Below are positions 31,787 to 42,918 of a stretch of 64,000 bases of DNA, piece by piece. Below the pieces are notes generated by a model. The model was not told where the DNA came from. It was given only the letters and a program-made list of their open reading frames with translations, and did no database searches. Position 1 is the stretch's first letter, and every line of letters starts with the position of its first letter. The position numbers and the translations under genes were made by a program. This DNA comes from a phage, in sequence record OZ346219.1; one strand, written 5' to 3'.

Positions 31787-32079
31787 TAATTAATCTCCAA
31801 AAATCCAGCAAGACCTAAACCGATATAAGTCCAGATACAAAGGAAAAAGAAGCAAACACCCATAGCAAAGATAAATCCGCGTAGTGTCTTTGGATAACCT
31901 ACCCAATATTCCCGACCATCTTCTAACCGGATCAACTTATTGCCTTGCGAGTCCATATCAACTACAACATGTTTATTTCGAGATTGCAATAGATATTGTT
32001 TTACAATCTCTACACCCGACATAATAACAATAACGAAAATAAAAATCCACACAACAAGATTAATGATAGTCTCAAGCAT
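31786..32079 (-). CDS. Hypothetical membrane protein
   Basis: 97 aa with two hydrophobic helices. Confidence 0.4.
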   Translation of the reverse strand: MLETIINLVVWIFIFVIVIMSGVEIVKQYLLQSRNKHVVVDMDSQGNKLIRLEDGREYWVGYPKTLRGFIFAMGVCFFFLCIWTYIGLGLAGFLEIN

Positions 32080-32314
32080 TTTCTATCACCTCCACCCAAT
32101 CAGGCGTTTCCTGAAAGACTCCTTCGCCTTCATGATGGTCGCAACCTTTATTGCTGCAATACATCCACCAATCCCACATTCCCCACGGTAAACGCTGCAT
32201 ATCGTCGTTACAGCAAGTGAAGATGATAGGCCAACCACATCTAACACATCGGCAGTTTTCTTTCATGTGAGCGGTATTAGGCTTCTTCATAGATGACTCC
32301 AATATAATCGACAT
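32072..32314 (-). CDS. Hypothetical Cys/Trp-rich protein
   Basis: 80-aa track ORF; CRCVRCGW...CCND...CSNKGCDHH. Confidence 0.35.
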   Translation of the reverse strand: MSIILESSMKKPNTAHMKENCRCVRCGWPIIFTCCNDDMQRLPWGMWDWWMYCSNKGCDHHEGEGVFQETPDWVEVIENA

Positions 32315-32517
32315 TTACATTTAGGGCAATGCGGTTCTTTAATATAATACCCGTCTGTCTTTGGAACACTAACAGGAGCGGTTTTTATATTGTATTCGGT
32401 GAAACAACGAAAACAAGTTACGTTTTCTACAGACTGACGTTTCACCCAATCACCGGAATATAGATCATTTTTATTTGTCATATTCAACCACCACAATGTT
32501 AATGTCTGGAGTAGCAA
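32287..32517 (-). CDS. Hypothetical zinc-ribbon-like protein
   Basis: 76-aa track ORF; CFRCF...CPKCKC. Confidence 0.35.
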   Translation of the reverse strand: MLLQTLTLWWLNMTNKNDLYSGDWVKRQSVENVTCFRCFTEYNIKTAPVSVPKTDGYYIKEPHCPKCKCRLYWSHL

Positions 32518-32926
32518 TATTAATGATCTCTTCTACACATTCCCACTCAAGGCCACCGATACCGCAACCGATTTTAGGAATATAGAAAGGCTGTATAGCA
32601 CCCTCAAAAACATCATTGAGAGACTCAAATCCTTTCAGGATAGCACCATATTCAGCATTTGGACCCGGTCGGAATTGGGTATAGAGATTCACCCCGCACC
32701 AGTTATAACCATTAACTTGATGCGTCCAGACACTAAACCCACCCAGCTTTTCGACCTTACCGCGAGAAGTTTGCTTGTCAATCTCTAACGCTTGCGGGAA
32801 CTCTTTCGCGATCTTCGCAGCAATACCAGCACCCATAGTATGAAAACAATTACAACCATGAATTAAATGACCGTTTCCTTGTTTAAACAGGGCGATGAGA
32901 TCGCCCTTTACAGTATCAATAATCAT
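32471..32926 (-). CDS. Macro-domain protein (ADP-ribose binding/hydrolase fold)
   Basis: 151 aa; IIDTVKGDLIALFKQGNGHLIHGCNCFHTMGAGIAAKI parallels the macro N-terminal signature (V.GDIT...VNAAN...GGGVDGAI); C-terminal PKIGCGIGGL parallels the P-loop-like IGTGVYG; GAGAGG SD. Confidence 0.55.
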   Translation of the reverse strand: MIIDTVKGDLIALFKQGNGHLIHGCNCFHTMGAGIAAKIAKEFPQALEIDKQTSRGKVEKLGGFSVWTHQVNGYNWCGVNLYTQFRPGPNAEYGAILKGFESLNDVFEGAIQPFYIPKIGCGIGGLEWECVEEIINIATPDINIVVVEYDK

Positions 32927-32941
32927 AATATAAACCTCTCA

Positions 32942-33301
32942 TTAGTCACGGGAAGACAACCCAGCCATAAAACGGCTTAACAGTGTGTCGCGATAAGCAA
33001 AGCATAATTGCTTATCAGGGGCAGTATCACACAGGTTACGTTTTGTTTTAGCAAAGCTGGCAATACTCAGATCCCACGCTCGATTTTTTCGTTTTTCGTC
33101 TCGACCTTGTTTGTATGCTTCATCAAGTTCGAGCGCGATAAAATCACTACACATGTTATCATCATCACAGAAAGTTTTAATGATCTTTTTGTTGATCTCA
33201 AATCCTTTGTATTCAAACTTTGGATAAGGGCGCTCATTACTAGCAAGCGCACCAGCAGAGAACATCATAGCAATCATAGCAATTATTGTCAACTTTTTCA
33301 T
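32942..33301 (-). CDS. Secreted/periplasmic protein
   Basis: 119 aa; signal-peptide-like MKKLTIIAMIAMMFSAGALAS; GAGGAA SD. Confidence 0.45.
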   Translation of the reverse strand: MKKLTIIAMIAMMFSAGALASNERPYPKFEYKGFEINKKIIKTFCDDDNMCSDFIALELDEAYKQGRDEKRKNRAWDLSIASFAKTKRNLCDTAPDKQLCFAYRDTLLSRFMAGLSSRD

Positions 33302-42199: not shown

Positions 42200-42664
42200 T
42201 TACAGTTTGGTCGTCCACTCCAGGTCTAGATCTTCGACATACTCATGAGATCGGACAATCTCTAAATCGAACTCTAGGTCAGTACCAAATTTACGCGCAC
42301 CAACATCATAAGAAAGCGTGATATGCGGTACATATTCAGGATAATCCCACGTCGCACCTAAAGCAGTGCCTATATCGTGTCTGAATTGCATGTAGTCGCT
42401 TTCAAATGCCAACACAAGCGCATTAGTACCGGATTGAGTTTCAAACACTTTAAGATGGCATAGAGAGCCTAAAAACTTTTCACCCTCTTCTGGTATAAAC
42501 GGAACATAGACACGAGAATATAAGATAGTGCTATGCAGTTTATCACGAGGAACGGCATTAGGCAGATCGTAGAACTCCTGCAATTTTTCAATGCGGTCTA
42601 GTGTATCCTCAGTGAATTTAACCGCCGCATATGTACCTTTAACGGATTCTCTAAACGGGGTCAT
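42200..42664 (-). CDS. 2H-phosphoesterase-like protein at the position of T4 57B (Acb1-like candidate)
   Basis: 154 aa from ATG 42664 (GGAGG SD); two H-x-T/S-x motifs (LHSTIL, PHITLS) ~70 aa apart; sits 57B-57A-1 as in T4. Confidence 0.55.
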   Translation of the reverse strand: MTPFRESVKGTYAAVKFTEDTLDRIEKLQEFYDLPNAVPRDKLHSTILYSRVYVPFIPEEGEKFLGSLCHLKVFETQSGTNALVLAFESDYMQFRHDIGTALGATWDYPEYVPHITLSYDVGARKFGTDLEFDLEIVRSHEYVEDLDLEWTTKL

Positions 42665-42666
42665 AA

Positions 42667-42918
42667 TCAAGCCTCCGTGATCAGTTCTACTTCCTCTTCC
42701 GCTGCGTCGTCTTTAGGGAGAAGTGCTTTCACTTCTTCGACAATAGCATCAAGGGAAACAGTCCCGTTTTCGTCTGGCTGAATACCCAGAATGCGTACCA
42801 GTTCCATCAATACACACTCACGATCTTTCAGTTGGCCTTCTAAGAATGCGGCCTTTTCTTGAGTGTCAAACAGACGTACTTTCAGGACATTAATCATTTG
42901 TTCATGCTGATTGGACAT
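42667..42918 (-). CDS. Small acidic coiled-coil protein at the position of T4 57A
   Basis: 83 aa from ATG 42918 (AGGAG SD); heptad-like N-terminus, acidic tail DDAAEEEVELITEA; positional assignment. Confidence 0.5.
   Translation of the reverse strand: MSNQHEQMINVLKVRLFDTQEKAAFLEGQLKDRECVLMELVRILGIQPDENGTVSLDAIVEEVKALLPKDDAAEEEVELITEA

Follow-up and report, generated by a model that had tools for sequence, protein, structure and literature searches.

The minus-strand open reading frame at positions 32471–32926 of the phage sequence OZ346219.1 encodes a stand-alone macrodomain that is orthologous to T4 Tk.4, recently renamed AdfM, and that probably serves as an orphan, antitoxin-like DNA ADP-ribosylglycohydrolase, countering the host toxin DarT2 by a glutamine-type chemistry. 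We propose this role from orthology and residue conservation; the window referred to throughout is the whole 64,000-nucleotide stretch of phage DNA that was analyzed. The gene itself is already known: it is the tk.4 gene of the T4-type phages, has been annotated for two decades, and is ordinary for this phage group. The residue anatomy described below, in which a glutamine would occupy the catalytic position, is our own small addition to it, as read from alignments.

The reading frame given in the earlier note was recovered unchanged, with an ATG start on the minus strand and a single-domain product of 151 amino acids (the coordinates include the stop codon). Every test run identified this product as a macrodomain, and ADP-ribose binding is predicted. 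The Pfam Macro profile (PF01661) matched across its full length (profile positions 1–118 of 118) with 29.9 bits, above its gathering score of 22 (E = 6e-7), and the protein also matched PHROG 335 (E = 6e-63). All phmmer matches to PDB sequences were macrodomains, headed by that of M. tuberculosis DarG (5M3I, E = 7e-8), with Bt_1257, TARG1/OARD1, SCO6735, and Poa1p next in rank. An AlphaFold2 model built from a 50-sequence alignment (mean pLDDT 94.0, pTM 0.89) displays the α/β/α fold, in which five helices accompany a mixed sheet of six strands, and its best Foldseek match is TARG1 (E = 9e-11, TM 0.77–0.83, 28–30% identity). The macro-domain fold had been proposed from two signature strings, both of which are present (residues 8–39 and 117–126), and structure prediction, Pfam, and PHROG all bear that proposal out. 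The two Gly-rich loops of the macro-domain ADP-ribose cleft, G32-A-G34 and G120-C-G122-I-G-G, are in place and near-invariant; the GxG loop is a hallmark of macro domains (PMC9503650). Because Pfam, PHROG, phmmer, AlphaFold2, and Foldseek agree, the protein's fold and its placement in the TARG1/DarG/ALC1-like class are established.

The window belongs to a Krischvirus: the 1.4 kb surrounding the gene are 98.5–99.2% identical to the RB49, Phi1, and GEC-3S genomes, and the protein is 100% identical to its RB49 counterpart. In Krischvirus Phi1 the gene already carries the name tk.4, with the product given as 'phosphatase', and the local gene order reads regB - vs.1 - vs - tk.4 - three small ORFs - tk. 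The earlier note was aware of no macro-domain gene in T4; its implication that T4 lacks one is incorrect, because T4 tk.4 (NP_049723) is a syntenic ortholog, found in the same arrangement (tk...tk.4-vs-vs.1-regB) and annotated with the remark 'contains A1pp phosphatase motif'. The two proteins align over residues 1–150 of the query and 1–152 of T4 Tk.4 (44% identity, E = 3e-45), and the Phi1 and T4 tables place tk.4 at one conserved position on the same strand, with vs, vs.1, and regB before it and the tk cluster after it. Synteny is thereby observed directly and orthology is established at the sequence level, with both proteins in PHROG 335. Query and T4 Tk.4 are also alike in length (151 versus 155 aa) and in their NLYTQ, HGCNC, and Gly-loop motifs, with the gene in each case between the tk cluster and vs-vs.1-regB. 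They differ in that their identity is 44% and in that the anti-DarTG2 phenotype discussed below comes from T4 alone.

The family extends well beyond these phages. A tblastn search located homologs in 2,735 of 50,697 phage records, with one matching place per genome, in phages of Escherichia, Klebsiella, Salmonella, Pseudomonas, Vibrio, Acinetobacter, and Aeromonas hosts. A 2006 comparison of T4-like genomes had matched the Tk.4 orthologs to the A1pp domain, and a 2022 survey reported Macro domains in 41% of myoviruses (PMC9503650). Krischvirus Tk.4 is much nearer to proteins of Vequintavirus (rV5-like phages; 68% for phiWec189 and Bas59 EduardKellenberger) than to its syntenic Tequatrovirus/T4 orthologs (44–50%), a likeness that suggests that unrelated E. 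coli myoviruses have swapped alleles at this conserved locus. A further match, at 67.5%, bears the label 'Campylobacter phage A135' (143 kb), apparently a mislabelled record or an unexpected host assignment. Several RefSeq names, both in the 55000–66000 region of T4 (NC_000866) and in Phi1, look like artefacts of name matching: mobD.4 is called 'molybdopterin-guanine dinucleotide biosynthesis protein MobD', tk.3 'Tk.2 conserved hypothetical protein', and tk.4 'phosphatase'.

The neighbors of tk.4 are vs, vs.1 (SLT), regB, and two zinc-binding small ORFs, and its junctions with the adjoining genes are those of a tightly packed phage operon. Its Shine-Dalgarno sequence, read from the DNA as GAGAGG (32935–32940, minus strand), lies 8 nt 5′ of the ATG and directly past the TAA stop codon (32942–32944) of the upstream operon neighbor, the homolog of the valyl-tRNA synthetase modifier vs (32942–33301, minus strand). 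Pfam recognized the neighboring RegB and SLT (vs.1) and returned no match for vs, which was identified through Phi1 and T4 annotation and synteny; vs is genomic context and no part of the tk.4 mechanism. Downstream, the start of a small minus-strand ORF homologous to Phi1 ORF090 (32287–32482, or alternatively to 32517) overlaps the 3′ end of tk.4 by ~11 nt, a start/stop overlap that suggests translational coupling. It is followed by a second small minus-strand ORF (32072–32314), and the two consecutive ORFs match different Pfam 'Phage zinc binding domain' families (PF23895, E = 6e-34; PF23903, E = 2e-23).

A promoter and terminator scan covering 30.5–36.5 kb of the window found 24 sigma-70-like sites against 18.6 ± 4.0 expected, and since such sites are not enriched in this region, no dedicated tk.4 promoter was assigned. 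The top sigma-70-like match of the region (TTGACA-17-TATGAT, its -10 element extended by TG, 11/12; 33264–33292, minus strand) lies within the 5′-terminal part of vs, ~330 nt ahead of tk.4, and could be either an internal promoter for tk.4 and the genes downstream or a chance occurrence. A weak hairpin at 32963–32977, in the 3′ end of vs, was taken as chance. Elsewhere in the window, a minus-strand 57B homolog (42200–42670) matches the Pfam anti-CBASS Acb1 family (E = 1.5e-51) and goes by the name 'RNA ligase' in the RefSeq entry of Phi1; it is a second known counter-defence gene of the same window.

The functional evidence comes from orthologs and relatives. In the HIDEN-SEQ preprint (10.1101/2025.11.20.689424), a T4 transposon library was screened on a DarTG2-expressing host and tk.4 emerged as the single significant gene; a clean knockout sensitized T4 to DarTG2, and the gene was renamed adfM (anti-DarT factor macrodomain). 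The requirement for T4 tk.4 on DarTG2 hosts has thus been established by others, by genetic evidence, with the authors calling enzymatic removal of ADP-ribose from DNA 'likely'. On hosts without DarTG2, tk.4 was dispensable for T4, and vs was the T4 gene most strongly depleted in minimal medium (10.1101/2025.11.20.689424). Considered together, these results make vs and tk.4 a pair of conditionally essential genes whose conditions are unrelated. T2 and T4 remain resistant to DarTG2 in the absence of AdfN, a NADAR factor with specificity for guanine adducts (PMC11825919), and the T4 tk.4 result fits this AdfN-independent resistance. A literature search for any test of a Krischvirus or of RB49 against DarTG2 found none. 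Among the functions suggested in the earlier note, reversal of ADP-ribosylation-based defence, and of DarT-type toxins in particular, is the part that the T4 genetics back. For its Thoeris/CBASS suggestion, no relevant evidence was found.

We infer that the Krischvirus protein does the same as T4 Tk.4, with an enzymatic action on DNA and Q84 as a catalytic residue. In the proposed mechanism, tk.4, a stand-alone macrodomain of the TARG1/DarG/SCO6735 (ALC1-like) type, would be expressed from a vs-tk.4 early-region operon. Host DarT2 would ADP-ribosylate thymidines in single-stranded phage DNA, Tk.4 would bind the ADP-ribose in the cleft between the Gly-rich loops G32-A-G34 and G120-x-G122-x-G-G, and hydrolysis of the ribose–thymine bond would restore replicable DNA. 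N26 is the conserved asparagine whose counterpart is important in PhiKZ AdfM. The chemistry probably needs no lysine, because the family has a near-invariant Gln (Q84) at that position, as does SCO6735, whose Gln is essential and for which a water-mediated mechanism was proposed. Several points count against this role: the T4 evidence is genetic and comes from a preprint, the identity to T4 Tk.4 is 44%, the catalytic Lys of DarG and TARG1 is missing, there is no counterpart of the SCO6735 loop proposed to clamp DNA, and an IH(G/S)CNC motif is held in common with the small-molecule enzyme Poa1p.

To describe the active site, conservation was counted over 121 family members, and residue equivalences were taken from profile-to-sequence alignments, which were mutually consistent and represent sequence profiles as opposed to structural superposition. 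The distal-ribose/catalytic loop H23-G-C-N26-C27, placed by alignment and conservation, is encoded at 32846–32860 (minus strand, as for all codons given here). N26 and G24 are kept in 121/121 members and H23 in 117; N26 aligns to N23 of PhiKZ AdfM and H23 to H23 of Poa1p. The first Gly-rich (GxG) loop of the ADP-ribose cleft, G32-A-G34-I-A36 (32819–32833), was assigned by conservation, with G34 and A36 invariant among the 121 and G32 present in 115. The second, phosphate-binding Gly-rich loop, P117-K-I-G-C-G-I-G124-G125 (32552–32578), was placed by alignment to TARG1 PRIGCGLDRLQW; P117, G120, and G122 are each kept in 120/121.

The segment N80-L-Y82-T83-Q84 (32675–32689) is where the family would depart from the better-known enzymes. 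N80 and Y82 are found in all 121 members and T83 and Q84 in 119. Profile alignments set N80-x-Y82-T83-Q84 over the lysine motifs IINFPTK of DarG, YLITK of TARG1 (K84), and MMFPTK of PhiKZ gp104, so that Q84 replaces the catalytic lysine. Q84 aligns with TARG1 K84, DarG K80, and the PhiKZ gp104 Lys, as well as with the essential Gln85 of SCO6735, and the NLYTQ segment falls over ANMIGQ of Bt_1257 and SCO6735. The published SCO6735 numbering was checked against the structure's chain, in which removal of the 20-residue tag turns Q105 into Gln85 and V45 into Val25, the residue names used in print. Even the distant homolog of Pakpunavirus K5 retains the Gln, as NLYGQ. The loop that follows is 5–6 residues shorter than the 'mobile loop' of SCO6735 and Bt_1257; since the Gln is kept and the mobile loop is absent, the phage family is a short-loop, Gln-type member of the class. 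A MAFFT alignment of seven sequences (query, T4 Tk.4, PhiKZ gp104, Mtb DarG, TARG1, Bt_1257, and SCO6735) was rejected as unreliable because NMIGQ of Bt_1257 and SCO6735 came out as an insertion instead of over NLYTQ. A single-sequence phmmer alignment to Bt_1257 was also rejected, being shifted at the same loop.

Comparison with characterized macrodomains places the family closest, in its catalytic position, to SCO6735 of Streptomyces coelicolor (PDB 5E3B) and Bt_1257 of Bacteroides (2FG1/2AFC). These members of a subclass of ALC1-like macrodomains have ~23–24% identity to the query and share its Gln. Unlike the phage family, they possess an extended mobile loop, proposed in SCO6735 to clamp DNA, and they are cellular proteins with DNA-damage-type regulation, whereas the query is a putative phage counter-defence gene. 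The study of SCO6735 found that it is efficient at taking ADP-ribose off thymidine and can rescue E. coli from DarT, that Q85A is inactive, and that it was the most active T-ADPr hydrolase among the enzymes compared; a lysine-independent, water-mediated mechanism was proposed.

The sole PADLOC and NCBIfam matches of the query were DarG models, covering positions 3–141 of 329 and 2–141 of 338, respectively, and at 50.5 bits the NCBIfam match falls well short of the 250-bit cut-off. The query shares the N-terminal DarG-type macrodomain of this DarTG2 antitoxin (PDB 5M3I, 5M3E, 7OMU), but an identity as a DarG antitoxin was rejected: the C-terminal DarT-binding domain and an adjacent darT are both missing, and the catalytic Lys80 is a Gln here. 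Human TARG1/OARD1 (4J5R/4J5S), among the top Foldseek matches, has the IH-x-C motif and Gly loops of the query. However, its catalytic dyad K84/D125 corresponds to Q84/G124, and the query is not TARG1-type because this Lys/Asp dyad is absent.

The chimallivirus nuclear macrodomain of PhiKZ, gp104, is like the query a stand-alone protein, and it counters DarTG2, as the query is predicted to do. In vitro it removes DarT2-installed ADP-ribose from DNA, it rescues cells from DarT2, and its activity is reduced by N23A (PMC13309987), N23 being N26 here. It is nonetheless distant from the family, scoring 38 bits against the family profile, keeping the DarG-type Lys (FPTKDNW), and being imported into the phage nucleus. 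The name AdfM was given independently to these two phage macrodomains (PMC13309987; bioRxiv 10.1101/2025.11.20.689424), which by sequence belong to different macrodomain lineages.

The absence of the canonical catalytic Lys from the tk.4 family would also suit a protein that protects without catalysis, by binding and inhibiting DarT2 itself or by masking the ADP-ribosylated DNA. The catalytically dead variants SCO6735 Q85A, DarG K80A, and TARG1 K84A inhibit DarT in vitro by interaction, SCO6735 most strongly, and the enzymatic activity of T4 Tk.4 is called 'likely' by the authors of the T4 screen. Against this, the active site is near-invariant over 121 homologs (N26, N80, Y82, Q84, and both Gly loops), as an enzyme predicts, the protein carries no DarG-style C-terminal DarT-binding domain, and a Gln-type macrodomain, SCO6735, heads the T-ADPr hydrolases with which it was compared. 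We regard non-catalytic protection as improbable.

The 'phosphatase' label points instead to a small-molecule hydrolase, either an ADP-ribose-1''-phosphate phosphatase or an O-acetyl-ADP-ribose deacetylase. Such an enzyme could serve in metabolite clean-up, in freeing ADP-ribose for phage NAD+ reconstitution, or in destroying ADP-ribose-derived immune signals. The comparison here is to yeast Poa1p (6LFQ), a small-molecule ADP-ribose-1''-phosphate phosphatase with a longer chain than the query, which is among the top Foldseek matches and has the same IH-x-C motif and Gly loops. The label has some basis: the N-terminal LIHGCNC...GAGIA of the query aligns to LIHSCNC...GGGIA of Poa1p, with Poa1p H23 and S30 at family positions H23 and T30, an equivalence derived from mutant chains. 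Of the key Poa1p residues His23, Asn26, Ser30, and Gly33, the first two are kept, while Ser30 is Thr and Gly33 is Ala. SCO6735 and Bt_1257 also have this His and Asn, which therefore do not tell the two families apart. The label stems solely from the A1pp domain name, the phage Adele paper states that natural Poa1p substrates have not been found in bacteria, and the sole recorded genetic phenotype of an ortholog is DarTG2 sensitivity. We therefore consider a primarily small-molecule role unlikely, although small-molecule and DNA activities are not mutually exclusive in vitro.

Gene neighborhoods elsewhere in the family bear on the same question. In the Pakpunavirus Pseudomonas phage K5, the macrodomain gene lies directly downstream of ribose-phosphate-pyrophosphokinase-like (Prs-like) and nicotinamide-phosphoribosyltransferase-like (NamPT-like) genes of NARP1-type NAD+ reconstitution, and the homolog in Vibrio phage Cilsick adjoins a Prs-like gene. 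These neighbors hint at a link between the macrodomain family and NAD+/ADP-ribose recycling in some phages, a link also discussed by the authors of the phage Adele study, and at other substrates in parts of the family. No NARP genes lie beside tk.4 in this window or in T4. A broader reading holds that the Tk.4 family is a distinct lysine-independent, short-loop, Gln-type branch acting as a general eraser of 1''-linked ADP-ribose, on DNA thymidine and on soluble derivatives feeding NAD+ reconstitution. This would explain the occurrence of the family in thousands of unrelated phages and its NARP1 neighbors in Pakpunavirus and the Vibrio phage, and we hold it as a minor possibility beside the preferred role, in which Tk.4 would remove DarT2 marks from phage DNA.

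Finally, Tk.4 might reverse other kinds of ADP-ribosylation, either Alt/Mod-type marks that the phage itself places on protein or RNA, or those of RNA-targeting host defences such as CmdTAC. T4-type phages do encode ADP-ribosyltransferases. Substrates of TARG1-class macrodomains include protein ADP-ribose linked through Glu/Asp and nucleic-acid ADP-ribose linked through phosphate, and SCO6735 can remove the modification from proteins as well. However, the Alt and Mod enzymes of T4 modify arginine, and the TARG1/DarG macrodomain class is not known to act on arginine. No partner ADP-ribosyltransferase was found among the seven ORFs neighboring tk.4, and the dispensability of tk.4 for T4 on hosts lacking DarTG2 also speaks against such a role. 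CmdTAC is reported to protect robustly against T-even phages, which have tk.4, and this argues that Tk.4 does not neutralize CmdTAC and that RNA reversal is unlikely; in the CmdTAC paper, tk.4 and phage macrodomains are not mentioned, and only coronavirus macrodomains are cited. We judge this alternative very improbable.

The tk.4 family ranks with the most common accessory genes found in large lytic phages, and thousands of records currently carry the labels 'phosphatase' or 'hypothetical protein'. These would be better replaced by 'macrodomain, AdfM/Tk.4-like, probable DNA ADP-ribosylglycohydrolase'. The mechanistic interest of the family lies in the Gln at the catalytic position, which would tie it to the mechanism of SCO6735 and separate it from the AdfM of PhiKZ.
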